This document shows, in pieces, positions 16 to 15,248 of a DNA stretch of 33,593 bases. The DNA comes from Candidatus Nomurabacteria bacterium (lineage in GTDB: Bacteria > Patescibacteriota > Minisyncoccia > Phycocordibacterales > UBA9973). The stretch lies in the NCBI GenBank assembly GCA_027347985.1, contig DAIEQH010000003.1, positions 1-33,593 of the forward strand, read 5' to 3'. The translations under genes and the position numbers were made by a program. Every line of letters starts with the position of its first letter. Position 1 is the stretch's first letter. The notes beneath the pieces are model-generated. The model was not told the DNA's origin and searched no databases. It saw only the letters and a list, made by a program, of their open reading frames with translations.

Positions 16-1860
16 TTATTTTCCGTATAGCATATGCCCAGCAAGCATAAGATTATCTTTACCGATTAAATCGTCGACCAAAAGTGGCAATTCTACAATC
101 GGAGCGGTAAAACGTCTATCCATTTCCACTAGATATTTTTCTTGCATTGCTTTTCTCTTCCTTAGATAATCATTCGTAATAATTGATTTTGGCAGAATGA
201 AATTTGCCACAACAAGACTGGTAGGGACACCGATAGTTAGAAGTTCATCCATAGCCCGAGCCGCTTCTTCAATCGGAGTGGATTCAGGATACATCACGAA
301 ACTGAAAGTCGTTTGATTGATATCCTGTATCATATCAATGACTTCTTTGAAACGAGACTTGGTAATTTTATCAATTTCTGTTTCACCAGTTGAAGAAAAA
401 GTTTTGATTTCTATTTGCTTGCTCCAATCAACTGGCAATTCTAAAAGCCTCAATGTGTGTCCAGTCGGGGCGGTATCAAAGACGATAACTTCAAAATCTT
501 TTCGGGTGGCAAAATCAATAAACTTCTCGAAAGTAGCCATTTCTTCCGTGCAGGGCGAATTCAATTCTTCTTCAATAGCAATCACTCTTTGTTTGTCATA
601 TTTTTGTCTGGCCTCAACTAAAATTTTTTCTTTATATTCGGCAACCGCCTTAACTGGATCGATTCGACAAGCCCATAAACTTTTTTCACCATTGATTAAA
701 GTGGGCTGATCACTCACATCCTGCTCAAATATCTGGCTTAAGTGAGAAGCTGGGTCAGTTGTTAAAAGCAGAGTTTTATAACCTTGTTCGGCAATCCACA
801 AACCCGTTGCCGCCGCTACTGAAGTTTTTCCCACTCCTCCCTTGCCAGCAAAAAAGATTGTTCGTCTTTTATTGTTTTGAGGAATGAGTAATTGTTTTAT
901 TTTCTCATCAATTTTAGGAATATCGTCCAATGCAAATTTACTTTTATCTATAGTTATTTTTACTGGCTGATAATCTTTTAATTTAAGAGCTTGCTCGTGA
1001 AGTTTTTTGCCCATTTTTATTAATGATTTTTCACCCTTAATTTCGCCTGGTTCAAGCTCTATTAAAGTAATAGGGATAGAAAATTTGTTCTTTATAATTT
1101 CCAAAAACTCCTGCTGTTTGGCAAAACGCGCCAACATAAATGGATTATTGCAAACATCCTGAGGGTAAATGCCATTGATAATGAGTTCTTGTGAAGTAAT
1201 TTTAAGTTTAAGAAGTTCTGCTATTGAGCGTTCGGCTTCATAAATAGGGGTTACTTCAGGTCGTAGGACAAAAACGAATGTAGTTCTGGAAGTATCCCTC
1301 ATGGCTGCGATAGCTTGATCAAATTTAGCCTTTGACTCAGCCAGAGCAGCGGCTGGACCAATACAGGTTTCTCCACCGCCTTCTTTAGCGGCCTTTTCAA
1401 TAACACCACTCCATTCTACTGGCAACTCCAGAAGTCGCAGCGTATGTCCAGTCGGGGCAGTATCAAAAATCACTATTTCATATTCGGGTTTTTGTAAAAA
1501 GTCGGTAAAACGATCGAAGGCGGCCATTTCTGCCGTGCAAGGTGAATTCAATTGTTCTTCCAAAACCATAAAACTTTCTTCAGGAATCAAACCACGAAGC
1601 GGAGATAGCGTTCTTTCTTTATATTCAGCCGTAGCAACATCTGGGTCAAGTTCCATTGCAAAAAGATTTTCAGTTGTTTTAATTTTCGTAATCTTGTGAC
1701 CAATTTCTTGCTCAAAAACATCCGCTAAATTTGAAGCTGGGTCAGTGGTAACAATGAGAGTTTTTTTGCCAAGACCCGCGAAATATATCGCACTTGAAGC
1801 GGCCATTGTTGTTTTACCTACGCCGCCCTTACCTGAAAAGAAATAAAATTTCGTATTCAT
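16..1860 (-). CDS. arsA: Arsenite-stimulated ATPase ArsA (two nucleotide-binding domains)
   Basis: Two GKGGVGKT P-loops, two DTAPTGH signatures, and three Cys at metalloid-site-like positions (SPCTAE, ETCIGP, SPCTEE). ATG at 1860 is preferred because it lies just after the arsD stop. Confidence 0.95.
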   Translation of the reverse strand: MNTKFYFFSGKGGVGKTTMAASSAIYFAGLGKKTLIVTTDPASNLADVFEQEIGHKITKIKTTENLFAMELDPDVATAEYKERTLSPLRGLIPEESFMVLEEQLNSPCTAEMAAFDRFTDFLQKPEYEIVIFDTAPTGHTLRLLELPVEWSGVIEKAAKEGGGETCIGPAAALAESKAKFDQAIAAMRDTSRTTFVFVLRPEVTPIYEAERSIAELLKLKITSQELIINGIYPQDVCNNPFMLARFAKQQEFLEIIKNKFSIPITLIELEPGEIKGEKSLIKMGKKLHEQALKLKDYQPVKITIDKSKFALDDIPKIDEKIKQLLIPQNNKRRTIFFAGKGGVGKTSVAAATGLWIAEQGYKTLLLTTDPASHLSQIFEQDVSDQPTLINGEKSLWACRIDPVKAVAEYKEKILVEARQKYDKQRVIAIEEELNSPCTEEMATFEKFIDFATRKDFEVIVFDTAPTGHTLRLLELPVDWSKQIEIKTFSSTGETEIDKITKSRFKEVIDMIQDINQTTFSFVMYPESTPIEEAARAMDELLTIGVPTSLVVANFILPKSIITNDYLRKRKAMQEKYLVEMDRRFTAPIVELPLLVDDLIGKDNLMLAGHMLYGK

Positions 1861-1861
1861 A

Positions 1862-2170
1862 TTATTTTTTATTAATAAACTTTTTAAATTCTTCAAGCGT
1901 TGGATATGCGCTGGTTTTAACGATTTTTCCTTCGTAAGTTGTGATTGGCAATATTTTTAGTTGCTGTTCTTGGATTAGTTTTATAACCTTAGGATTTTCT
2001 TTGAATTTTTGTGGGCTTTGAGTGATAAGATAACGTTCAACCTCTATACCCAACTTTTTAACTTCCGCTAATGTGTCTTGTAAGCTAATAAGCGTTTGGT
2101 CTGGGTTAGGACCGCATACGCCAGTTGAACAACACATTGGTGGATCATAAATGACAATTTTTTTACTCAT
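1862..2170 (-). CDS. arsD: Arsenic metallochaperone ArsD
   Basis: N-terminal YDPPMCCSTGVCGP motif; adjacent to arsA. Confidence 0.95.
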   Translation of the reverse strand: MSKKIVIYDPPMCCSTGVCGPNPDQTLISLQDTLAEVKKLGIEVERYLITQSPQKFKENPKVIKLIQEQQLKILPITTYEGKIVKTSAYPTLEEFKKFINKK

Positions 2171-2191
2171 ATTGTTTGTTTAAATTAATGC

Positions 2192-2494
2192 TTAGCATTT
2201 TAATTTCTTTTCTTTTGTTATAATAATTTTTGTCAATAATTTATTTAATTCTTTTATCCTTTCTCTGTTAAGCGAATAATAAATCCATTTGCCTTCTCTG
2301 CGGTTTACGATCAAACCACCTTGCCGTAAAATTCCCAAATGGTGCGACACTAGATTTTGCGGAAGTTTTAATTCTTCGAATATTTCACAAACACATTTAT
2401 CTCCCGAAGCCAGAAATAGAACAATCCCAAGCCTTGTATTGTCGCTCAAGGCTTTTAACGGTTCCAGGAAAGTTTTTTGTTTCTTATTGTTCAT
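2192..2494 (-). CDS. arsR: ArsR/SmtB family metalloregulator
   Basis: KALSDNTRL, CVCEI metal box, VSHHLGILRQGGLI..RREGKWIYYSL winged helix. Confidence 0.93.
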   Translation of the reverse strand: MNNKKQKTFLEPLKALSDNTRLGIVLFLASGDKCVCEIFEELKLPQNLVSHHLGILRQGGLIVNRREGKWIYYSLNRERIKELNKLLTKIIITKEKKLKC

Positions 2495-2562: not shown

Positions 2563-3894
2563 TTATGGGTTAAGCGATATTTTCTTATTATTCAACAATA
2601 TTCTACTTTTTAAGCATCCCAATAATTCTCTCTTCTGAATATCTTCTCCCTCCTGTAATACATACTTAGCATAACTCCGTATATCGACACCAGATATATT
2701 CACCTTCTCTTTGGTACCCAGAAAAAATTTCTGCATTTTAGTAAATTTCTCAACATCAGCCTTAATTTTTTGTTTGATTTCAATTTCGTTGATATTAAGA
2801 TTTTCTATTAGATTTTCAAACTGTTTAATTAATTCTTTTTCTTCAATGTAGCCACATTTACAATTACCGTCTTTCGCTTTACTACAACCATAGTAGACAT
2901 AACGATGAGTGTTTCCATTTTTATGCTTCTTAAACTTCTCGCAAGCCGAAATGCCAGAATCACATAAACCACAAGCCATCATTTTGGTAAAGGCAAATTC
3001 TTTTCCTTCGGATCTCAAGATCTGGCTTTTAACTTGTTCTTGTACTAAATCGTAAAGTTCTTTAGTAATGATCGGTTCATGTTTGCCTGTGTACCAATTA
3101 CCACTGTTTCTGGGATATTCAAAAATTCCATAGTAAAAAGTATTACTCAATGTTCTATATAAATTACCCAAGCTAAGATGTTTCTTACCGGCGGCCGTTT
3201 TGAAATTGAGGTCAAATCTTAGCCAGTTGTAAACCTTCCTACCACTCCATTTTTCGTAAGCAACTTTCTCAAAGATTTTTTTGATAATGTGACCTCTCTC
3301 GGGATCTATAATTACCTGACACTTCCTATCCATCATTTTTTGATTTAAATATCCGGTTGGAGCTACGCCAGGCCATAGTCCCATTTCAACTCGGGTGCGT
3401 AATCCTCTTTTTACATTCACGCTTTTATTATCATTTTCTAGTTTAGCTTGCGAACAGAGAATCATCAAAAGAAACTTTTCATTTGGTGAATTTTTAAAGT
3501 GCTGTCCGTAAGTGCGAATCTCCATTAATAACTTTTGATCCATGAGGTCAACAATACTTCCTAAATCGCCAGCGTTTCTACTTAATCTATCGGGTGCCCA
3601 GGTCAGAATTCCATTAAATCTTCCTCGTCGTATATCTTCAAGAATTTCTTTGTAAACAGGTCGTTGCCCTGACTCTTTTGCCGAGTGAGATTCTCGCCTA
3701 ATTTCTACAACTTCCAATCCTTCTCTTTCAGCCATGCTAAGCATTTCTTTGATCTGGGAATCAATAGACAAAACTTGGCGTTCTTCTGATTCAGTACTTT
3801 TTCGTGCATACAAAACGTATTTAATTTTTATAGTTGGAGCAATAGCCATAGTGCCTATCAATCCAACATCTGCTTGTTTTTCCATGCCCGTCAC
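2563..3894 (-). CDS. Large serine recombinase (resolvase, recombinase and zinc-ribbon domains)
   Basis: YARKS catalytic motif, ESHSAK, DRLSRN, PTGY, HEPII, CGLC...YYGC..C. The start may be the ATG at 3885. Confidence 0.93.
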   Translation of the reverse strand: MTGMEKQADVGLIGTMAIAPTIKIKYVLYARKSTESEERQVLSIDSQIKEMLSMAEREGLEVVEIRRESHSAKESGQRPVYKEILEDIRRGRFNGILTWAPDRLSRNAGDLGSIVDLMDQKLLMEIRTYGQHFKNSPNEKFLLMILCSQAKLENDNKSVNVKRGLRTRVEMGLWPGVAPTGYLNQKMMDRKCQVIIDPERGHIIKKIFEKVAYEKWSGRKVYNWLRFDLNFKTAAGKKHLSLGNLYRTLSNTFYYGIFEYPRNSGNWYTGKHEPIITKELYDLVQEQVKSQILRSEGKEFAFTKMMACGLCDSGISACEKFKKHKNGNTHRYVYYGCSKAKDGNCKCGYIEEKELIKQFENLIENLNINEIEIKQKIKADVEKFTKMQKFFLGTKEKVNISGVDIRSYAKYVLQEGEDIQKRELLGCLKSRILLNNKKISLNP

Positions 3895-4078
3895 GATATC
3901 AGACTGGTTGGGTAAGTAAAGCTAGCATCGTTGGCAACGTGTTGGTAACTTTCCTTAACAAAATAGCTAGTCTGCGATAGGGTTGGGTTGGAATAATAGC
4001 TTAAAAAGTGCTATTATTTCTTTACAAATTAATATTATTCAAAAGGCCTAACCCCTTGGAATTTCTGAGGATATGGTC

Positions 4079-4223
4079 TAAAAACTCGCTACAAGATAAA
4101 GAACCCTTCGTCAGGGTACTTGTAGCGAGTCATAATCGGAAACGGTTATGGGTGGGTCGCAAGATCCATCGCCCGGCGGAGGGCTCTTTGTCTATCTGCT
4201 AGGGTATTAAAAACTCGCTACAA
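4079..4223 (+). ncRNA. Candidate structured RNA (cis-regulatory leader or small RNA), family not recognised
   Basis: Long stem 4095-4117/4171-4192 encloses two abutting 8-bp hairpins with GAAA and GCAA tetraloops. Several G-U pairs work only on the + strand. Confidence 0.7.
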
Positions 4224-4226
4224 AAT

Positions 4227-4817
4227 ATGTATAAAAGAATTCCAGTGATAAAACTCACTGGAACTGAACAATTCAAGAATGTAGGAAACAAAAATTTCTC
4301 TGTACTTGAGTTTTGGCGTTATGGATTTTCAAATCTTAATTCAAATGTTCTACGGGGAGCGCTAGCAGAATTTATTGTAGAAAATGCCTTAAGAAAAAAT
4401 AATGAAATTGATATTCGTAACCCATGGGGCGACTCGGATGTAATTTCTCCAAACGGAAAAAAGATTGAAGTGAAATGCTGTTCGTATATTCAGGATTGGG
4501 ATCAAAATGATTTTTCAAAAATTCTTTGGAGTGGTCTTAAAGCTAAGAGTTTATACTGGTCATCAGCAGTTAGTGCTTTTCCAAGAAGTCCTGCTGATTT
4601 TAAATCAGATATTTATGTACTGGCTCTTTTCAAGCACCAAGATCATACGACGCTCGATATACTTGATATGGACCAGTGGTGTTTTTGGGTACTGGCGAAA
4701 GAAAAAATAAAAGAGATAACAAAAAATGGGAACAGTATATCGCTTGTTAAACTTCAAAAATTTAATCTCGAGCCAATATCTTTTAATCTTCTATCAGAGG
4801 CTATATTGAGCATCTAA
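4227..4817 (+). CDS. Hypothetical protein, probable PD-(D/E)XK restriction-endonuclease-like fold
   Basis: RGALAEFIV helix followed by WGDSDV-ISPNGKK-IEVK. Confidence 0.6.
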   Translation: MYKRIPVIKLTGTEQFKNVGNKNFSVLEFWRYGFSNLNSNVLRGALAEFIVENALRKNNEIDIRNPWGDSDVISPNGKKIEVKCCSYIQDWDQNDFSKILWSGLKAKSLYWSSAVSAFPRSPADFKSDIYVLALFKHQDHTTLDILDMDQWCFWVLAKEKIKEITKNGNSISLVKLQKFNLEPISFNLLSEAILSI

Positions 4818-4822
4818 TTATT

Positions 4823-6274
4823 TTATAGTGCGTCAAATCTTGGTCCTTTAAATACAATTCCTCTGGCACCCCTACGACAATCTTTTTCTGCAATCTTTCC
4901 AAGAAGCAAAGAAAAAGCGTCAGCTAGGTCATCATGTTTTTCAATGCCAAAATTAAGTAATTGTTGGATAAGTATTTCCGCTCCTTTTTTGGGAAACAAT
5001 ACTTTTCCAGACTCTACCAGAAAACTAATAGATGTCAGTCGTCCGTACTTGTCATTGATAGATCGTACTCCCTCAGCAAGGTAATTTTGATGTTTAAGGT
5101 GATTTACAAAGGAAATTTGAAAACCGTTATCTTCAATAAAAAGCTTACTTCGACCAAGCGAAGCCGATATGGCTTTTGCTTGTTCAAGTATCTCCTGTGT
5201 TGTAAGTCTTTTGTTAATAATGTTGGGTAGAATATATACTCGTAGGTTCTCTCCGCGACTGCATACCTTAGCTGAAACCATGGCCGTATAATCTGCGTGG
5301 TCTTTAAGAGAAATGGCTAAATCAATACCAGTAGCGTAATAGCTATGAAAGCTATCGGGTGGTAGTAAATCATAATACTGGATCCATTCTCGTTTTATGG
5401 GTTGGTCTTCATTGCTGACGATATTAAGAAGGTATTCGCGTTGCCAAGCAATTTCATTTCCTGCTTTTCGTTTTTCTCTTTCAATATCTTCCATTGTAGG
5501 ATATTTACCGGGCCACAAGATTTGACCGTCTTTGATAAGCGAATACTCCTTAAAAATTCCATCTATCATTTTATTTTCAATATTTTCCTTGATACGCATG
5601 AGTAACGAATCTTCATGTAGGAGATTCCCGGCAATAACAAATCTGGTATTTTTCTGACCGATAGGGATAACTTCTCCGGTCCACCACTCGTAGGTTTTGT
5701 TCCTGCCTTCCCGTGTTCTTGTGGATTCTATATTTTCCAGATCGTCTCCAATCACCAGATCAGGGCGGTGTTGATTGTGTCTCATTCCACGAATACTCTG
5801 CTCGGAAGAAGCGGCGGTAATTCGGGCGTTTAATTTTGAAAACACTAAAGTCGAGGAACCCCATTCGTTAGACACCTCGCGAAATGGTCCAAGGTCATTC
5901 TTAAGAAGCACATTACTTTCAAGTTCGTTACGCAAGCTCATCATGAATTGTTTTGCTTGAGCCTGGGTTTGAGCAAGAATGAGGACGAATTTTTTCTGTT
6001 GTTTCCCGAGGATTGCCCAAATGGGGTAGGAGGTAGTCAGAATAGTAGATTTACTACTGCCACGGAAACTTACAATATAGAAGTTTCCAAGACTTTCGTT
6101 TTGGGTAAGATTGAATATTTCGTTGTGAAATAGAGCTGTCGGAGATGTGACATAATGGGCGAAATAGAAGTGAAAGAAATACCAGTGGCTATCTTTAGTT
6201 ATCGCCGTTCTTACTTTTTTGTCCTTTAGCATTTTTTCCACTAATTTTTGCTGAATCATTTGAATTGTTTTCAT
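4823..6274 (-). CDS. Phage terminase large subunit-like protein
   Basis: Walker A variant SFRGSSKST, Walker B LVIGDDLE, WQREY linker, RNase H-like GIDLA...HDDLADA. ATG 6274 is preferred over the track start at 6331. Confidence 0.88.
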   Translation of the reverse strand: MKTIQMIQQKLVEKMLKDKKVRTAITKDSHWYFFHFYFAHYVTSPTALFHNEIFNLTQNESLGNFYIVSFRGSSKSTILTTSYPIWAILGKQQKKFVLILAQTQAQAKQFMMSLRNELESNVLLKNDLGPFREVSNEWGSSTLVFSKLNARITAASSEQSIRGMRHNQHRPDLVIGDDLENIESTRTREGRNKTYEWWTGEVIPIGQKNTRFVIAGNLLHEDSLLMRIKENIENKMIDGIFKEYSLIKDGQILWPGKYPTMEDIEREKRKAGNEIAWQREYLLNIVSNEDQPIKREWIQYYDLLPPDSFHSYYATGIDLAISLKDHADYTAMVSAKVCSRGENLRVYILPNIINKRLTTQEILEQAKAISASLGRSKLFIEDNGFQISFVNHLKHQNYLAEGVRSINDKYGRLTSISFLVESGKVLFPKKGAEILIQQLLNFGIEKHDDLADAFSLLLGKIAEKDCRRGARGIVFKGPRFDAL

Positions 6275-6665
6275 ATTTATTTTGATTATCGCTAATAATA
6301 GTTGTGCCAAGTCTAAGGGCTTCACGCACAATTTTCTTTTGTTCAGGGGTTAATTCTTCCGTATCTTCCTTGGTGGTAATTTCTATCGTATTTTTGTAAT
6401 TGTCATTTCGATGTTTTAACCAGAAGCTGATGGCGGGGTAATTTTTTTCCTTAATAAGGGTTAATAACTGGCTCTCGCTCATGTCGTTTACCAGAGCGAC
6501 ACCGTCAACCAAAGCCTGATCCATTTCTTTAGAAAATTTAGGATCCTCTTTTTTCCAACGGTAAACACTATTTCTAGATACTCCGGTTTTTTCACAGGCA
6601 ACTTGCACGATTGGAACTTTTCTGAGTTCCGCGAAGAAACCATCTTGTAATTTATTTTTCTTCAT
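6195..6665 (-). CDS. HTH protein, probable terminase small subunit-like
   Basis: ACEKTGVSRNSVYRWKKEDPKF HTH and AISFWLK motif; lies directly upstream of terL. Confidence 0.7.
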   Translation of the reverse strand: MKKNKLQDGFFAELRKVPIVQVACEKTGVSRNSVYRWKKEDPKFSKEMDQALVDGVALVNDMSESQLLTLIKEKNYPAISFWLKHRNDNYKNTIEITTKEDTEELTPEQKKIVREALRLGTTIISDNQNKYENNSNDSAKISGKNAKGQKSKNGDN

Positions 6666-7935
6666 GGATTATTTTTACTTTATTACCAGTAAGCTTCTCG
6701 TACCGACGAATCACGAGATCGCAAAATATTGGCTCAAGTTCTATTCCATACACACGGCGATTAAGTTGTTCTCCGGCAACGAGTGTACTACCGGAACCAA
6801 GAAAACTGTCGAGAATAATTTCGCCAAGCCTGGTACAACGACGAATGGCCTTGTTGTGAAGTTGGGGAGGTTTTGAAGTTGCATGCTGTTCTTGATTTTT
6901 ACCAGATAGGCGTTTTTCCATCCATACACTTAAATGGTCGGATGCTTCATCTAGAAGATTGTTGCCGGTGGTCATTTCTTTATTCATAACCTCGTTCAGA
7001 TTTTGAATATTGGGAGCAATATACGGTCGTCCGCGAATTCCATAGGTGCATGGCTCATAACACTTGTTAAATGCAACCGTAGGAACAGGGTTCTGAGAAT
7101 TTTTTAACCATAAGCACACACGTTTGTTTTCAATACCAAGTTCACGGTAAAGTTCTTGGATTAATCCGATAAAAATTTGATCCGACCAGTAGAATATATG
7201 TGTATCTTTTTTGGCTACCAGAAGAGCGTTCACCATGCTTTTACGTAGAAATTCCTTGTAAGCCTTGTCTGTTCGATTGTCTATAACATTTCCACCGTAC
7301 TGTGCTTTTCCACCGATGCCTCCATTGTAATCGAGTGAAATATTATACGGCGGATCGTTATATATCATGGAAACTTTTTCATTTCCAAGCAGTCTTTTGA
7401 GAGCCAGTGGATCTTCAGCACTACCGCAAATTAATTTATGCGGACCCATAATAATCAGGTCGCCTAGTTTAGTTTTTGGAATCTTGATTTTGGCAAGCTC
7501 GGCTTTTTCGTCAAAATCATCATCTTCCGCTTCCAAATTTTCAGTCCATAATTTTGACAGATCAGCATCAGGAAAACCAACATCGCTTAATAGGTCCATT
7601 TGAAAAGATTTTAATTTCTCAAAGTCCCATTCGCCGTCGTTTAAATTACTTTCTAGAGCAATTTTTTCTCGTTCTTCATTGGAAAGTCTACGGTTAGGGG
7701 TAAGCACATTCACTTCCGTAATTCCGAGTTTAGTGAGAGCGGCCTTGCGTTGATTGCCGGACAAAATAGTATTGTCCTGGTCGACTACAATCACACTGTG
7801 AAAACCACGATCCTTAATTCGTTCCATTAATTGAGATAATTTCGCTTTTCCAATCTTGCGTGGGTTTTCTTTCCATACCTTCAAATCTTTAACTTTTTTA
7901 ACTCCCGAACTCCACACCAATTTTATTTTAGACAT
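6652..7935 (-). CDS. ParB-like N-terminal domain fused to N6-adenine/N4-cytosine DNA methyltransferase
   Basis: NPRK..VDQDNTILSGNQR ParB/Srx-like region; DPPY motif IV precedes DSFLGSGST motif I (beta order); HATSKP. Confidence 0.9.
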   Translation of the reverse strand: MSKIKLVWSSGVKKVKDLKVWKENPRKIGKAKLSQLMERIKDRGFHSVIVVDQDNTILSGNQRKAALTKLGITEVNVLTPNRRLSNEEREKIALESNLNDGEWDFEKLKSFQMDLLSDVGFPDADLSKLWTENLEAEDDDFDEKAELAKIKIPKTKLGDLIIMGPHKLICGSAEDPLALKRLLGNEKVSMIYNDPPYNISLDYNGGIGGKAQYGGNVIDNRTDKAYKEFLRKSMVNALLVAKKDTHIFYWSDQIFIGLIQELYRELGIENKRVCLWLKNSQNPVPTVAFNKCYEPCTYGIRGRPYIAPNIQNLNEVMNKEMTTGNNLLDEASDHLSVWMEKRLSGKNQEQHATSKPPQLHNKAIRRCTRLGEIILDSFLGSGSTLVAGEQLNRRVYGIELEPIFCDLVIRRYEKLTGNKVKIIHEEK

Positions 7936-8345: not shown

Positions 8346-11300
8346 ATGTCTAGCAAAGACAACATTAATGAATCAGAAAAACCTCTTGATAACGCAAAAG
8401 GAGTATTGAAATTTTCAAGTGATCGCCAAAAAAAGATATGGCGTGCGTTGGCAAAGTTACATCCAAAATTTGGCAAAAAAATTGCTAGTATTTTCGAGGG
8501 CATAATACTTGCGTTAAACGACAATAACCCTGAAAAAATTTCTATTGTTTCTCACTTAGCAAGAGAACTTACTGAAGTTCTACCTATATACATTTCCGGT
8601 ATTCCAATAAGACAAAAGAGAGCGACTGACGATGAAATCAAAAAAGGTTTGAACAATATATTAAAGATGCTAAAAAGCGGGAAGAAATCTGATGAAAAAA
8701 TAAAAGATGTTGTTGAGAATCTCATAGCACAAATACCAGAACAAAAATCTCAACGTGAACAATTAAGAAAAATTGTTGACTCACATAAGGTTCTCGGATC
8801 TCGCCCATCTTATCTTAACGATGAATTTATAAAGCAATGGATGATAGTAAATAGATATTTTTTAAAATACTGTCATCATAGTGAATTGAAAAACTTACGT
8901 GACGATCCATTTTCTGAGGCAGAACTTAATGCAAATTTGAATACCTTTGAAGTGTTGATCTATAGAATTTTAGTAAAGGAACCGTTTTTTGACACTATGA
9001 AAGAGATAGATAGGCTTATGGGCATAGATAATCCCATAGAAAGAGACGCAGACGAGTTAATGAGACACATAGTAGAACCACAACATCGCAGATATTTTTT
9101 TGAGAGATGCGATAATCCAAATTGGCTAAACCTTTTGAACAAGAGAAATGCCTTTTCTTCCCCACAAGAACCTCTAAAAAAAGACGGATACATACAGTTT
9201 ATTCCATGGCCAGAATCAAAATATTTAGTGAGGGTAGCACATAAAAAACCCTTAGAGGTTTATAAAATAATAGAAAAATTAACATCTGATAACCAGACGG
9301 TATTGTACGACTTTTTAAAAGCCGCATTGGATTCACCTGTAAACATTTCCGCTATGTATGCAAATTTAATTGTAAAAAAGAAATGGCTACAAGGTCCATA
9401 TAATTTAAGTTTGCCAGATCAAGTTGCAGATCTAATGGAAAAACTTGCAAAAGGTAAAAAAGGGAAAGAGGCACTTTATCTTGCCAATGAACTATTTAGG
9501 TTAAGAATAGACAAGCAACGTGCCCCTAAAGATCGAGATGAATTGAGATTTTTCCATCCAGATGCAAAACCTTACTACGACGAATGGCAATTCAAAGAGA
9601 TTGTCGGTAAAAAAACGAAGGAACTTGCTAAAATAAAACCAAAAGAACTATTCAATACATACATTCAAAAACTAAAAGAAGCCATCGAACTTGAAAAACG
9701 AGGGAATAAAGATGGTAATTTCTATGAATACTCACACATTTGGAGACCAAATTTATCTATATCAAGAAACAAAACAGAGGATGCAAAAAATATTTTACTT
9801 GATGGTATTATTCAACTAATAGAACAGTATAAAAATGATCCTGTAATACTAAAACAATTTTCCGTTGTCCTTCGTAAATGTTCTTATGCTCTTTTCAGAA
9901 GAATTGAGATGTTTTTGTATAAGTTTGATTCTAATATTTTTACCAAAGAGTCAGAAAAGATATTAAGAAATAGAAGAATAATAATCGCTTACAATTTGAG
10001 ACGTGAATATCTACCGCTACTTGAAATCATGTACGACAAAATCTCTACCTCTTCAAAGAAATATATTTTAAAAGTCATAGAAGGAGGCCCTGATTTCAAG
10101 AAACCCAAAGATTATACAGACGAACAATTTGAGAGGATGACATCCAATTGGAAATCTCTCTACCTATCTCCCATAAAAGACAAACTTTCAAAGGGGTATT
10201 CAGATAAATATAGTAAAATAATTAAAAAATATGATAAACCAATTGACGATGATGGCGAAATGACAGTTTGGGATGGTGGTAAAAGTCCAATTTCGGCTGA
10301 AGATCTTTCGAAATTAGACGCTGATGAAACCCTGAAATACTTAGCCGATTACAAAATGCCAGATGATCCTTTTGGAAGGCACTCCTCTTCTGGTTTGGGC
10401 ATGATATTTTCCGGCCTTGTTGCAGAAAATCCAGAAAAATATGTTCCAACAGCGAAAAACTTTTTTGAAAGAAAAACTCGTCCAATATATTTTTATCATT
10501 TAATACATGGATTAAGAGAATCATTGGTAAAGAAAAAGTGTTTCAGTTGGAAACCAATTATAGAACTATGTTATAGAATCGTAGTAAAAAAAGAATATAA
10601 TTCAGAGCCTGTAAATAACGACGAACAAGACTGGAATTCTGTAAGACTTGCCATTGCCGATTTCTTAGGAAGAGCATTGGGGGATGATACTTGCGAAATC
10701 CCTACCATATTTAGAAAAGAAATATGGGATATAGTATCAAATCTAGCGGAAGATCAGGACCCCACCCCTGAGTATGAACATAAAGATAGCGAAGGCGGCT
10801 TAGATCCTATGACTCTAGCAATAAATACAGTGCGTGGAGAAGCCATGCATGCAGTTGTAAATTATGGTCTTTGGATTGCTCGAAATCTTCCAGATAAATC
10901 TATTGAGGTAAAGATGCCAGAAGAGATGGAAGAATTACTCAATAAGCATTTAGATATTAAACAAGATCCCTCATTGGCCATCCGTTCAGTGTATGGATGG
11001 AGATTACCCAATTTACACTATTTAAATAAACCTTGGATAGAAAAAAATAAAGAAAAGATTTTTGCAAAAGACTCGCCGGATTATCTACTGGCAGCATGGG
11101 AAGGATATTTAGCCAATAATATTCTTAAGGAAGTATTTTCTATACTTAAGCAACAATATTATGACTTTATTCCATATCTAGGGACTCTTGAAAAGAAAGG
11201 GTATCGTGCGGCAGATATAGATCAACGGTTTCCACAACATGTGGCAGTTATTTATGCAAATGAACCAGAGCATGAAGATTTTGTAGATTATTTTTTTAAA

Positions 11301-11816
11301 ACAGCTCCTGTAAAAACTCGCGCAGAAGCAATAAATTTTATCGGCCGAGTAATATTAAGACAACTTGAAGCATTCCCAAACAAAGAAGAAGTTAAAAAAA
11401 GGTTGGGCAATTTATGGGATAAAAGAATTTCTCTTTCTGAAGAACAAACTGAAACGGAAGAACTAAAAGAATTTGGTTGGTGGTTTAAAGTAAGCCCATT
11501 CTCTAAAAAAGAGACTTTGGAACGAACTATAAAAACCCTCAAACTCATTAAAGGTGTTATTAACGTACCCTACGAAATTGCAGAAGAACTCAAAATATAT
11601 GCTAAGGAATTGCCAGTTGAAACTATCACCTTGCTTGATTTAATTGTTAGAGCAGAGAGAGAGAATTACGAGCATCTTTATAAAAAGGAAGAGTATAGAG
11701 AAGTTATAAAGATAGTAAAAGCTACCGGGAACAAAACAGCAAACAAGATTGTTAAAGATCTTATTAATTATTTAGGGTCAATCGGGTTGATTGATGATTT
11801 CAGAGACCTTCTCTAA
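8346..11816 (+). CDS. Large helical hypothetical protein (1156 aa), candidate defence sensor/effector
   Basis: Long intact ORF without P-loop. N-terminal SHLARE...RYFLKYCHH is HEPN-like. Preceded by TGaTAAAAT 6 nt before the ATG. Confidence 0.6.
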   Translation: MSSKDNINESEKPLDNAKGVLKFSSDRQKKIWRALAKLHPKFGKKIASIFEGIILALNDNNPEKISIVSHLARELTEVLPIYISGIPIRQKRATDDEIKKGLNNILKMLKSGKKSDEKIKDVVENLIAQIPEQKSQREQLRKIVDSHKVLGSRPSYLNDEFIKQWMIVNRYFLKYCHHSELKNLRDDPFSEAELNANLNTFEVLIYRILVKEPFFDTMKEIDRLMGIDNPIERDADELMRHIVEPQHRRYFFERCDNPNWLNLLNKRNAFSSPQEPLKKDGYIQFIPWPESKYLVRVAHKKPLEVYKIIEKLTSDNQTVLYDFLKAALDSPVNISAMYANLIVKKKWLQGPYNLSLPDQVADLMEKLAKGKKGKEALYLANELFRLRIDKQRAPKDRDELRFFHPDAKPYYDEWQFKEIVGKKTKELAKIKPKELFNTYIQKLKEAIELEKRGNKDGNFYEYSHIWRPNLSISRNKTEDAKNILLDGIIQLIEQYKNDPVILKQFSVVLRKCSYALFRRIEMFLYKFDSNIFTKESEKILRNRRIIIAYNLRREYLPLLEIMYDKISTSSKKYILKVIEGGPDFKKPKDYTDEQFERMTSNWKSLYLSPIKDKLSKGYSDKYSKIIKKYDKPIDDDGEMTVWDGGKSPISAEDLSKLDADETLKYLADYKMPDDPFGRHSSSGLGMIFSGLVAENPEKYVPTAKNFFERKTRPIYFYHLIHGLRESLVKKKCFSWKPIIELCYRIVVKKEYNSEPVNNDEQDWNSVRLAIADFLGRALGDDTCEIPTIFRKEIWDIVSNLAEDQDPTPEYEHKDSEGGLDPMTLAINTVRGEAMHAVVNYGLWIARNLPDKSIEVKMPEEMEELLNKHLDIKQDPSLAIRSVYGWRLPNLHYLNKPWIEKNKEKIFAKDSPDYLLAAWEGYLANNILKEVFSILKQQYYDFIPYLGTLEKKGYRAADIDQRFPQHVAVIYANEPEHEDFVDYFFKTAPVKTRAEAINFIGRVILRQLEAFPNKEEVKKRLGNLWDKRISLSEEQTETEELKEFGWWFKVSPFSKKETLERTIKTLKLIKGVINVPYEIAEELKIYAKELPVETITLLDLIVRAERENYEHLYKKEEYREVIKIVKATGNKTANKIVKDLINYLGSIGLIDDFRDLL

Positions 11817-11820
11817 TTTT

Positions 11821-13584
11821 ATGGCAATAAATACAAAAATAGTTACACATCTTACTTACAAAGAACTCTTTGATTCTTTTGAAAAAAACGGAACTGTTTT
11901 TCCAATAAGTATCTTGAAGGCAAGCGAAGATATTGAAACACAAATAGAATATCTGCTGACTAACATGAATCCCGTTGAAATGACACAGTTCAGTTCTTTT
12001 CTTAACATGATATGCCAGACAAGAGATACTGATAAAACCATGATTAGAGGCATATCGCTATTGGAAGAAACCGGGATTATTCAAAAAGGAAGAGGCTTCT
12101 CAAATAAGATAGTTTTTCATAGAGAGAACTTATTAAACCTGATCGGGCAAATACTTTCTAAAAAATTAAATGGTAAAGATCAATTAACAGGACCTGGACA
12201 TACGGCGAACCAGAAAAAATACACAGAGGCTATTTTATTAAATAATGATCTGGCGAGCATGGAAGCTGAAGCAAACGGCACGAAAAATGGGATTTTTATC
12301 CGTGATTATTTTATAAGAGAATATCCCCACTATTACCTTCCTGATATTGCTAGGCTTATGTATGGGCATAGGATAGTTCGTTATAGATATTGTTTTGAAC
12401 AATTGCTTCCAAACTTAGACAAAGTAAATATAGACGAAATAAATAAAGGAATTAATGCCTTTGAACAAAATTCAGGAGTAACACTTCAGGAATATATAAA
12501 AGTTCTTAATAGCCTTTATGCTTGGTTTTTTGAGATCCCTTTTCAGAACGAGAAAAATCCACCTGCTCTAGGTACTCAAAAATTTGGTTTCGATTTTCAA
12601 CATTTGAGTTCATTTTACATACAAGCATCTTTGTTTAAGCAAGATCCGTCATTTCTTAAAGCAATTAGTCATTTATCAAAAGATATTAATGCACTAAGGT
12701 CTGCATTGGAACAAGAGGATCAAAGGCCGAGGGATCCAATAACTGGATACAATAAATATATTCGGGTGTTTTTTGATAACCCTGTATTTAAAATATCAGA
12801 AGATTTTTACTGTATCATAGACCTAAAATTTATTATTGAGAACGTATGCGGCGGATTACTTTGGAGAATTAAAAGTGAGGGAAATTTGCAGAATTTTAAA
12901 TCAGCTTATGGTCGTCTTTTAGAAAAGTATTTCCAATTTATAATTCAGAATATTTTTAAGAATACTAAGGTCAGCTTTGGGGAAACTGCTGGAGCTGACG
13001 CCGTAATCGAAACCGATGATTGCATCTTCGTTATGGAATTTACTACGGAATATTATAGACTGTCTTCTTTGTATAACCCAACGGCTGATGGTTTTCTAGA
13101 TGACGCTTATCGTATTTTGTTCAACACAGGTAAGGATGATCCTAGAGCAAGAAATAAAGATGATAAAGGAAAATTAATTAAGCTTAATCAATACATTGAA
13201 GATAATAAAAGTAAGGGTAAAAAAATTATCCCAGTTATCGTTACCGAAAACTTTTTAGGTAATCATGATTTATTTAATGAATTTGATAATTTCTGCAATT
13301 CAGAAATAGCAACAAAAAATCTTACAAACTTAGAAGGGATACCCCCAATGTTTCTATGTTTAGATGATCTTGAGACTTTTTGGGGTCTGTTTGATCCAAA
13401 GGACGCGGTTAAGGGATTTGTGGGCTTTAATGACTACTGGGTATCAAAAGAAAAGGAGTCCTTATTCCATAATCCTTCCTCTGGAATGTGTAAATTTATT
13501 GAGGAAATAAATAATAAAGAACCTAGAATAAATAATCATGAATTTGCTGATTTTTTCTCACCCAAGCAAACATTTAAGGAATAA
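11821..13584 (+). CDS. Hypothetical protein with C-terminal degenerate PD-(D/E)XK/NERD-like domain
   Basis: AYGRLLEKY...GADAVIETDDCIFVMEFTT. The ATG at 11821 lies 4 nt after the upstream stop. Confidence 0.55.
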   Translation: MAINTKIVTHLTYKELFDSFEKNGTVFPISILKASEDIETQIEYLLTNMNPVEMTQFSSFLNMICQTRDTDKTMIRGISLLEETGIIQKGRGFSNKIVFHRENLLNLIGQILSKKLNGKDQLTGPGHTANQKKYTEAILLNNDLASMEAEANGTKNGIFIRDYFIREYPHYYLPDIARLMYGHRIVRYRYCFEQLLPNLDKVNIDEINKGINAFEQNSGVTLQEYIKVLNSLYAWFFEIPFQNEKNPPALGTQKFGFDFQHLSSFYIQASLFKQDPSFLKAISHLSKDINALRSALEQEDQRPRDPITGYNKYIRVFFDNPVFKISEDFYCIIDLKFIIENVCGGLLWRIKSEGNLQNFKSAYGRLLEKYFQFIIQNIFKNTKVSFGETAGADAVIETDDCIFVMEFTTEYYRLSSLYNPTADGFLDDAYRILFNTGKDDPRARNKDDKGKLIKLNQYIEDNKSKGKKIIPVIVTENFLGNHDLFNEFDNFCNSEIATKNLTNLEGIPPMFLCLDDLETFWGLFDPKDAVKGFVGFNDYWVSKEKESLFHNPSSGMCKFIEEINNKEPRINNHEFADFFSPKQTFKE

Positions 13585-13617
13585 TAGGGTAAGCCTGGGC
13601 AAAAGGTTTAATAAAAA

Positions 13618-14067
13618 ATGTTGGAACTTATAGATAGAAATTTAAAAATGATTAACATAGAACACGCAAGAGATTTTATACAAAAGCATCAAGATCAAGT
13701 TACTGATCTTTTTATTACCTATCAAATGATAGAAATGATGTTTTTTCTTAAACTTCACTTACCTGGGATATCAGAGATAGAAAACAGAGAAGATTATTTA
13801 GAGGGAGTAAATAAACAAATTAATTCAAAAACTTTTGGGAAATTAAAAAAAGTTTATTTAGAAAAATATCCCAATGACAAATATCAGTTGATTTTTGATA
13901 TGGAAGTTGTCGCAATACAAAGAAATAGTTTTATGCATTCTTTTTGCATGATTTTAGTCTTATGGGAAAATCAAGAAGAGATGAATACATGGGGAAAATT
14001 TCTTTTAGATGACTTTACAAAACAAGCTCATAATTTACTGGAAAAAGTATATGAATTACCAAATTAG
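13618..14067 (+). CDS. Small HEPN-like protein
   Basis: QMIE helix, KTFGKL and RNSFMH (Rx4H). Alternative start at 13648. Confidence 0.5.
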   Translation: MLELIDRNLKMINIEHARDFIQKHQDQVTDLFITYQMIEMMFFLKLHLPGISEIENREDYLEGVNKQINSKTFGKLKKVYLEKYPNDKYQLIFDMEVVAIQRNSFMHSFCMILVLWENQEEMNTWGKFLLDDFTKQAHNLLEKVYELPN

Positions 14068-14108
14068 GTAATATAATCATCTTCGTTTCTTTGTGTTATA
14101 ATAAAAAT

Positions 14109-15248
14109 ATGGAAAACAATATCTTAAATTTATTTAATGAATTTCTAAAAAATTATGATGTGGAATCTAAGGATGCATTGTGGTCAGAACAGAGCTTAAA
14201 ATTTAGAAATTTTTGGCAAGATAAAATTTTCTCTCATTCCAAAGATGAGCTTAATGATACAGAGACTGATGAAATTATTAGGATATTAGATAGGAACGGT
14301 AGAGGTAATACAAAAGAGAGTGAGGCAGTGGCAAAAGCCATGATTGCTCAAGGTGCTTGGAGAAGAATGTTTAATGAACTAAAAAACAAACAACCATTAC
14401 ACGAATGTCTAGACAGAATATTTAAAAGCTCTGGGGATGAAAGAGAGAAGTTAATTAATCAACTATATAAATTAAATGAAGGAAATCGCAATAATTTAAC
14501 TGGACCAAGTGGCAACGCAATCAATGATATGATTTTTGCCTGGGACCCATCTTCTAATCTCAGCATTATATCCTTAAACGATCGCAAGAAAGTTCTTGAA
14601 TATTTTGGATTTGAAAATCGTACAGTTTTTGAAAAAGATTCAATTGGAGAAAAAATTGTTAAATCAAATGAAGATATTATTAAAGGTTTTAAGTCTTTAA
14701 GTATATATGGATCACCAAGAACAGTAAGCACATTTTTGTATTCAATCAATGTACAATCTCTTTGGAAAACTGAATCTGAAAAAGAGTTTACAAGCGTAAG
14801 TGAAGAAAAACCATCTCAAATAATAGGTGAAAATGAATCTTCGGATCAGACTTTGTTTTATATGGAAAAAGAACTTGAAAATTTTTTAATCAAAAACTGG
14901 GAAAAAACTGAATTGGGTAAAAAATATGATTTGATTGAAGAAGATGGAAAATTCAGCCAGCAATACCCAACTGGAGTTGGCCCAATAGATATTTTAGTAA
15001 AAGACAAAAAAGATGGAACATATATCGTGATTGAATTAAAGAGAAATCAAACAAGTGACGATACTATAGGTCAATTAGCTAGATATATGGGGTGGCTTAA
15101 AGAAAATAAAACAAACGGAAAAACAGTAAAAGGAATAATTATTACAGGAGGATATGATGAAAGACTTTATTATGCATCCCAAATGCTAATTGGTTGTGAA
15201 ATATACATATATCAGGTTGATTTCAAATTAAAAGAATTTAAAGAATAG
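14109..15248 (+). CDS. Endonuclease with C-terminal NucS/DUF91-like PD-(D/E)XK domain and an unknown N-terminal domain
   Basis: EKELENFL...GPIDILVKD...VIELKR...DDTIGQLARYMGW. ATG 14109 follows TGtTATAAT. Confidence 0.8.
   Translation: MENNILNLFNEFLKNYDVESKDALWSEQSLKFRNFWQDKIFSHSKDELNDTETDEIIRILDRNGRGNTKESEAVAKAMIAQGAWRRMFNELKNKQPLHECLDRIFKSSGDEREKLINQLYKLNEGNRNNLTGPSGNAINDMIFAWDPSSNLSIISLNDRKKVLEYFGFENRTVFEKDSIGEKIVKSNEDIIKGFKSLSIYGSPRTVSTFLYSINVQSLWKTESEKEFTSVSEEKPSQIIGENESSDQTLFYMEKELENFLIKNWEKTELGKKYDLIEEDGKFSQQYPTGVGPIDILVKDKKDGTYIVIELKRNQTSDDTIGQLARYMGWLKENKTNGKTVKGIIITGGYDERLYYASQMLIGCEIYIYQVDFKLKEFKE

Follow-up and report, generated by a model that had tools for sequence, protein, structure and literature searches.

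LOOT RNA as a candidate two-state leader of accessory genes in Patescibacteria

The locus and its structured RNA

The window analysed here is the whole stretch of 33,593 nt from contig DAIEQH010000003.1 of a Candidatus Nomurabacteria genome (646 kb in 133 contigs). At its left end an arsR-arsD-arsA arsenic-resistance operon (16-2494, minus strand), which may be island cargo or flanking host DNA, directly adjoins the gene of a large serine integrase (2563-3894, minus strand; Pfam Resolvase, Recombinase and Zn_ribbon_recom; phrog_95 integrase). Divergent from the integrase runs a gene for a 196-aa protein (4227-4817, plus strand), on which the genes for the large and small terminase subunits converge (4823-6665, minus strand; phrog_38, E 9.5e-79, and phrog_4044, with NCBIfam models below their cut-offs). 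The stretch that begins with the terminases (4823-7935 on the minus strand and 8346-15248 on the plus strand) continues with a DNA methylase, followed by two uncharacterised ORFs (1156 and 597 aa) and a nuclease of the NucS/YhcG type. Apart from the terminases, no phage structural gene could be recognised between 4823 and 15248, and host genes (PGI, HAD, type IV pilus) start past ~15.4 kb. The RNA discussed below and the gene that follows it look like part of a decayed phage-like or defence island, in which they occupy the strand opposite to the integrase and the terminases. Neither tRNA nor tmRNA was found in the window.

The 196-aa protein is plausibly nuclease-like and probably of the PD-(D/E)xK type, as suggested by residues that are invariant in 13 homologues (E52, D69, D71 and E81-V-K83). 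The strand order of its structure model is compatible with the PD-(D/E)xK core (alpha-beta-beta-beta-alpha-beta); the model has a pLDDT of 66, and a Foldseek search against the PDB returned nothing at E <=0.001. Sequence searches in Pfam, NCBIfam, PHROGs and the PDB gave no match, and neighbours in the ESM Atlas point to PF26887, T4 endonuclease IV (score 0.97), as a lead only.

Between the integrase and this gene lies a structured RNA that a preliminary description of the sequence had assigned to no recognised family. That claim to novelty falls with a scan against Rfam (cmscan), in which positions 4045-4170 of the plus strand match RF03000, LOOT RNA, over the whole model (positions 1-121 of 121, E 2e-14) and with 83 bits against a cut-off of 46.4. 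The RNA is a copy of a catalogued orphan family: the member is new, the family known. The motif comes from the survey of Weinberg et al. (2017; PMC5737381), whose main text gives no description of it, and Rfam types it as 'Gene; sRNA' with no function given. In the papers searched it is mentioned only in a figure legend in PMC7779021 and only in a table of R-scape improvements in PMC11701678, and one sentence in PMC7657543 refers to its unusual 'cross-covariations'. No paper on a LOOT function, a 3' extension or a start-site mimic was found in the literature searched, which included the main text of the 2017 survey.

LOOT has been an orphan in Rfam since 2017, filed as a metagenome-derived sRNA, and can now be placed in named Patescibacteria lineages. 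In a draw of 151 relatives, 60 genomes carry it, each with between 1 and 7 matches, and an even draw of 151 genomes across the phylum contains it in 30 (both draws include the source genome, which has two copies); none of 14 control genomes contained a match. A comparative set of 91 LOOT loci with their flanks was assembled.

The Rfam consensus runs from a first hairpin (H1) through an A-rich linker to a long hairpin, which is followed by two tetraloop hairpins, the first of them with a GAAA loop. In its minimum-energy fold, 4045-4170 contains four successive hairpins with GAAA and GCAA loops, and per-locus minimum-energy folding recovers the same four domains in 86 of the 91 relatives; L002, L028, L052, L059 and L076 could not be parsed into four hairpins and are left out of the duplex, start-site and accessibility counts below. 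Upstream of the RNA, a promoter-like site on the plus strand (3988-4017) comprises a first hexamer, an 18-nt spacer and a TG-extended -10 box (4009-4017), a consensus match only, with 9 of 12 bases plus the TG before the second hexamer. A -10-like hexamer is found in 67 of 90 relatives, in most of them ending 12-27 nt before LOOT. The transcript presumably begins with the conserved A/T-rich leader at 4022-4044, where a TTACAA..TTAATA-type word recurs between the -10 box and LOOT.

By the Rfam alignment, H1 occupies 4045-4078 and has an internal loop that resembles the 11-nt receptor of GAAA tetraloops: CCUAAC/UAUGG agrees in 10 of 11 bases with the receptor, named CCUAAG/UAUGG in PMC11381326. 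Its 5' word reads CCTAAA in 50 of the 91 loci and CCTAAC in 36. After the linker (4079-4083), unpaired in the Rfam consensus, come the 5' strand of the long stem (X, 4084-4095), the apical part of the long hairpin (A, 4095-4117) and the 3' strand of the stem (antiX, 4119-4130). The hairpins H3 (4131-4150, GAAA loop) and H4 (4151-4170, GCAA loop) were again placed by the Rfam alignment. The H3 loop is GAAA in 85 of the 86 parsed loci; that of H4 is variable (GAAA in 28, UUCG in 20, GCAA in 16, others in the remainder of the 86). The conserved GAAA loop may dock into the receptor-like loop of H1. Few unpaired bases are conserved, and no obvious ligand pocket is apparent.

All the coordinates in the preliminary description were confirmed in the sequence. 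The two copies of a 16-nt direct repeat (4079-4094 and 4208-4223) are identical, and the match continues to 20 nt at 95% identity; the 15-nt core of the repeat has two matches in the 33.6 kb at <=2 mismatches, where 0.15 would be expected, and none of 100 shuffles reached two. The first copy consists of the linker and, as its core, X. The second copy, X', was found by repeat and complementarity searches and ends at 4223, leaving 3 nt before the ATG at 4227. The central segment, antiX, is 100% complementary to X over 12 nt (4084-4095 with 4119-4130) and to X' over 11 nt (4120-4130 with 4213-4223). The outer stem of the Rfam long hairpin is this same central segment paired with the upstream repeat copy, and the identity between the linker and the bases preceding the downstream copy is mostly compositional. 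The second helix described, P1, joins 4095-4117 to 4171-4192 by 21 pairs including G-U, read by hand, with one A.C mismatch (4103/4184) and a bulged A at 4113; H3, H4 and the 3' strand of P1 are contiguous, with zero spare bases. The fold of the plus strand has a z-score of -5.73, with 0 of 200 shuffles as good, and that of the minus strand a z-score of -1.65.

A conserved tail and competing helices

The Rfam model ends at 4170, and the conserved 3' tail (B, 4171-4192), a hairpin that this tail forms with a following segment C (B:C, 4171-4205) and X' all lie outside it. P1, too, is outside the model or in conflict with its long stem. Why should a tail be conserved beyond the end of a catalogued RNA? 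The 30 nt past the model end are conserved and, in every parsed locus, complementary to the apex of the long hairpin. The duplex between a locus's own A segment and tail averages -25.0 kcal/mol over the 86 parsed loci (of 91), compared with -13.2 kcal/mol for 508 swapped pairs; by themselves, the two local hairpins have energies of -5.6 and -7.5 kcal/mol. In the window, P1 has a duplex energy of -28.8 kcal/mol, or -32.8 with one extra flanking base. The tail is also visible by eye in L002, L028 and L076.

To assess covariation in P1, 76 non-redundant sequences were aligned with MAFFT without regard to structure. In the 16-pair core, 92.6% of cells are paired and 15 of 16 pairs vary on both sides; over all 21 pairs the values are 86.3%, against 44-51% with one strand slid, and 19 of 21, with 0 of 500 shuffles as good. 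The distal stem of the Rfam hairpin is weak in this clade and carries non-canonical marks; its loop bases covary with the tail instead, and the covarying columns of P1 include these loop bases of the Rfam fold. The A.C opposition (4103/4184; columns 94/193 of alignment A1) is kept in 47 of the 76 relatives and could be a protein contact, a tertiary contact or a pH-sensitive pair.

The stem formed by X and antiX has an energy of -18.6 kcal/mol in the window and a mean of -16.7 kcal/mol across 86 loci. On the MAFFT alignment, only 52.7% of its cells were paired and a slide by +1 did better (65.4%). This low count was discarded as a register artefact, since variable stems are misaligned in such an alignment and per-locus folding shows the stem in 86 of 91 loci.

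The tail has a further partner in C, and the B:C hairpin is part of the minimum-energy fold in the window, where it competes with P1. In the relatives, pairing of the tail to C averages -9.9 kcal/mol for own and -7.1 kcal/mol for swapped partners, and reaches <= -8 kcal/mol in 58 of 84 own against 176 of 502 swapped combinations. Seven of the 91 loci carry a canonical terminator before the ATG (6-17 nt from it in six loci, 79 nt in the seventh). C doubles as the 5' strand of this terminator, and its pairing with the tail amounts to -10.7 to -21.1 kcal/mol. At these loci B:C would act as an antiterminator and P1 as an anti-antiterminator, giving the same polarity as proposed below for the loci with X'.

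P1 may itself terminate transcription in most relatives, as a T run of >=5 follows its GGG in 67 of 91 loci. Termination at P1 in this window is doubtful: the U run is interrupted and the longest run is 3. P1 also bears a three-way junction where terminators have their loop, and a terminator scan of 3850-4900 found none on the plus strand. The 196-aa ORF contains, just within its 5' end, a perfect inverted repeat of 9 nt (4240-4263) that scored as terminator-like on the minus strand.

These T runs, together with the Rfam type 'Gene; sRNA', raise an explanation in which LOOT is a separate small RNA whose own terminator is P1 with its U run. The gene would then be transcribed from a promoter within the A/T-rich spacer, and the exposed antiX of the small RNA would pair in trans with X' at the 5' end of the gene's mRNA. 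A TAnnAT-like box does recur 20-30 nt before many ATGs (by reading, unscored). However, a transcript starting 7 nt past that box would begin inside X' and lack most of the stretch with which antiX pairs, no -35 element stands at normal distance in the spacer (by reading) and the promoter scan lists no plus-strand site there. The position of the RNA also speaks for a leader: a co-directional ORF starts 28-130 nt past the model end in 84 of 91 loci, at 40-70 nt in most, and this tight constraint on the distance counts against a separate small RNA. Furthermore, the seven tail-coupled terminators make sense only if transcription passes P1. We regard a separate sRNA as rather unlikely, and a 5' leader co-transcribed with its gene as the better reading.

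Evidence from RNA libraries was limited to assembled contigs, with small shares of the runs covered, and gaps in that cover carry no weight. It consists of a single contig of 243 nt from a relative, with 14 differences and 4 gaps, that spans 4047-4246; the same contig also extends 45 nt upstream past the -10 box, and it may be DNA.

Mimicry of the start site and the genes that follow LOOT

Does such a leader reach the translation start? The lineage lacks Shine-Dalgarno sites: upstream of 517 ORFs an SD-like core occurs 37 times (7%), against a background of 10% inside ORFs, and of the 84 LOOT-led ORFs only 2 have one. Initiation should therefore depend on an open start region, and an 11-bp helix at -4 to -14, as antiX and X' would form here, should matter.

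In about a third of the loci LOOT matches its own start region: 26 of 80 show pairing of antiX with that region (-22 to +4) at <= -9 kcal/mol, compared with 12 of 393 swapped combinations. In 15 of 91 loci LOOT has an exact word of at least 11 nt in common with the 200 nt that follow it, against 2 of 87 for the upstream side and 2 of 270 swapped controls. The words shared with the downstream side correspond to X and stop 0-6 nt short of an ATG. By eye, an X' copy can also be seen in L028 and L076. Two other pairings were considered. That of the tail with the start region, in the 'ACGCAAAA' class or loci without X', was not locus-specific (30/80 own, 98/393 swapped). A closing helix formed by the 5' leader and the bases preceding the ATG was rejected, with -3.96 kcal/mol for own and -4.17 kcal/mol for swapped partners.

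Homologues of the 196-aa gene allow the three segments to be followed at one gene. In named genomes 8 of 12 homologues have LOOT upstream, and in 7 of these 8 the distance from the end of LOOT to the ATG is 57-66 nt. Of those 7 loci, 6 contain all three of X, antiX and X', two of the homologue loci being letter-identical to loci in the 91-locus set and hence not independent. Among the orthologues, the window included, five sequence versions of X/antiX/X' occur, and each is internally matched. The preliminary description had asked whether its central segment co-varies with both repeats, and this is borne out, as X, antiX and X' change together at orthologous genes and P1 covaries as well. The named metagenome-assembled records with this downstream gene are assigned to Parcubacteria, Nomurabacteria, Paceibacterota, Taylorbacteria, Uhrbacteria and Saccharibacteria.

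An identical X/antiX/X' word also stands before unrelated genes in L028, L042, L045 and L076 (and L095). The unit of promoter, LOOT and X' thus seems to be exchanged as a module, with a joint within a few bases of the ATG.

The position of LOOT between an integrase gene and terminase genes invites another explanation, that it belongs to a mobile element, as a guide or bridge-type RNA of the serine recombinase or as an antitoxin of the nuclease, and that the repeat arose by duplication of a target site or forms the core of an attachment site. Many neighbours of LOOT are indeed defence or mobile genes, and in 7 of 87 loci the closest ORF upstream encodes a large serine recombinase. The suggestion that LOOT might be a functional RNA of a recombinase/terminase element keeps loose support from this association; it does not hold as a general rule, as the other 80 of 87 loci have another upstream neighbour, such as restriction, Abi-type or ParB/methylase genes. 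No antisense LOOT copy in the recombinase leader was found among the inverted repeats of 3800-4320. The proposal of an antitoxin or guide RNA for the nuclease is not supported, as the 84 LOOT-led genes span 38 Pfam families and this nuclease accounts for only 4 of the 84. Families represented include superinfection immunity (3), tRNA_anti-like (3), DNA methylase (2), staphylococcal-type nuclease (2) and many surface or unknown proteins. Given this diversity, LOOT appears to be a promoter and leader that accessory genes carry as a portable module, rather than an RNA tied to the nuclease or the recombinase.

The repeat itself also argues against the mobile-element explanation. Its first copy is a covarying stem strand within a conserved RNA and not a flank, and copies differ by compensatory changes, unlike recent transposon copies. 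Outside the stem part, identity between the repeats is 3.46 of 6 bases in own and 3.10 of 6 in swapped loci; with flank identity barely above that of swapped loci, duplication of a target site or of other DNA was rejected, and the repeat is best read as a mimic at the RNA level rather than as a scar. Taken together, a mobile-element role for the RNA appears highly improbable.

Two recurrences in the gene context may be recorded. Several LOOT-led secreted proteins (L003, L015, L020, L039, L074) share an N-terminal '...ASWWNPFSW...' motif right after the signal peptide. In L020, L042, L060, L067, L068, L073 and L089, the nearest upstream ORF has 459-469 aa and lies ~95-122 nt from LOOT; these ORFs may be a recurrent neighbour family.

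A two-state model and its relation to known systems

The reading that we favour, and consider somewhat more probable than all others taken together, is that LOOT is a cis-acting, bistable 5' leader of ~200 nt that gates diverse accessory genes in Patescibacteria. In the first fold, that of Rfam, X would pair with antiX (4084-4095 with 4119-4130) and enclose A in a hairpin. The tail B would then be free to pair with C (4171-4205), leaving X' and the start region single-stranded and open to translation. In the second fold, that of the preliminary description, B would pair with A to form P1 (4095-4117 with 4171-4192). P1 would hold the 3' end of X and the 5' end of antiX ~16-21 bp apart, so that on geometrical grounds the stem between them could not form. 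The antiX strand thus freed would pair with X' (4213-4223), covering -4 to -14 and blocking initiation. From this geometry we infer that P1 and X:antiX are mutually exclusive. The polarity, with the first fold on and the second off, and the occurrence of both folds on one transcript are likewise inferred. The idea that the preliminary description placed first, translational switching by a central segment that pairs with either the upstream copy or the copy at the start codon, finds support in the comparison of loci.

Folding calculations suggest that the two states are closely balanced. As the window transcript grows, its predicted minimum-energy fold flips to P1 at position 4195 and back at 4207, and the forced states differ by ~4 kcal/mol, being nearly isoenergetic; the energies for the second fold with antiX:X' are sums, as this pseudoknot lies beyond the scoring of the folding program. 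In the 23 loci with X', predicted accessibility of the start region is higher in the first fold in 16 and lower in 1. In 57 loci without X', it is unchanged in 40, higher in the second fold in 14 and higher in the first in 3. The absence of a change in most loci without X' means that the model fits only about one third of the copies, plus the seven terminator loci.

What could tip the balance? The GAAA loop and the receptor-like loop are the only conserved tertiary motif, so the first fold is probably stabilised by Mg-dependent docking, and some factor might tip the RNA out of this docked state. Alternatively, the first fold may form first during transcription and decay to the second.

It could be argued that no switch is needed, and that LOOT is a constitutive structural leader, protecting the 5' end or aiding folding, whose helices are steps of a folding pathway. 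The 38 Pfam families among the 84 downstream proteins suggest no single metabolite signal, and the scarcity of conserved unpaired bases would suit a passive role. However, the two exclusive helices are both kept by compensatory change, and both states thus appear selected. The start-site mimic is kept in register with antiX, and a coupling between terminator and antiterminator is present. All three would be costly for a passive leader, and we judge such a leader improbable, less likely even than a separate sRNA and still well above a mobile-element RNA.

The bistable leader, the preferred reading, suggests how organisms with few regulators and without Shine-Dalgarno sites might gate accessory genes. 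A bolder interpretation, which we put forward tentatively as a possibility well short of even chances, is that LOOT represents a class of cis-acting RNA sensor in Patescibacteria that has so far gone unrecognised, with a compact sensor domain built on the tetraloop and its receptor and with interchangeable expression platforms. If so, the platforms would be the exact pair of decoy and start-site mimic, the tail-coupled terminator, or P1 itself as a terminator, and many unrelated defence, surface and prophage genes would come under one cellular signal. Of the traits by which riboswitches and other cis-acting leaders are recognised, a fixed co-directional position and alternative pairings to a start site or terminator were both found.

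In attenuators of the trp-leader type and in riboswitch platforms, four segments follow a logic of 1:2, 2:3 and 3:4 pairing. LOOT resembles them in its chain of exclusive helices A:B, B:C and C:terminator at seven loci and in the choice between X:antiX and antiX:X' at the start site in about one third of loci. It differs from them in having neither a leader peptide nor an identified ligand, in coupling two competitions (X/antiX/X' and A/B/C) that would be switched together, and in that its sequestering strand has an exact internal decoy.

Messenger RNAs of the hok/sok type refold from metastable 5' structures and are subject to fold-back inhibition. In LOOT, too, long-range alternative pairings would set access to the start region, and an early fold may decay to a closed one. 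Differently from hok/sok, LOOT has no antisense RNA gene and no sequence relation to that system, and the genes downstream are mostly not toxins.

The c-di-GMP-I riboswitches (GEMM-I) occur in several copies per genome before diverse surface and phage-related genes, and their main tertiary element is a GAAA tetraloop with its receptor. LOOT shares with them the multiple copies before diverse genes and the GAAA tetraloop with a receptor-like loop. Unlike GEMM-I, LOOT has no conserved pocket or known ligand, and the two are set apart by their architecture and by the absence of a match in Rfam.
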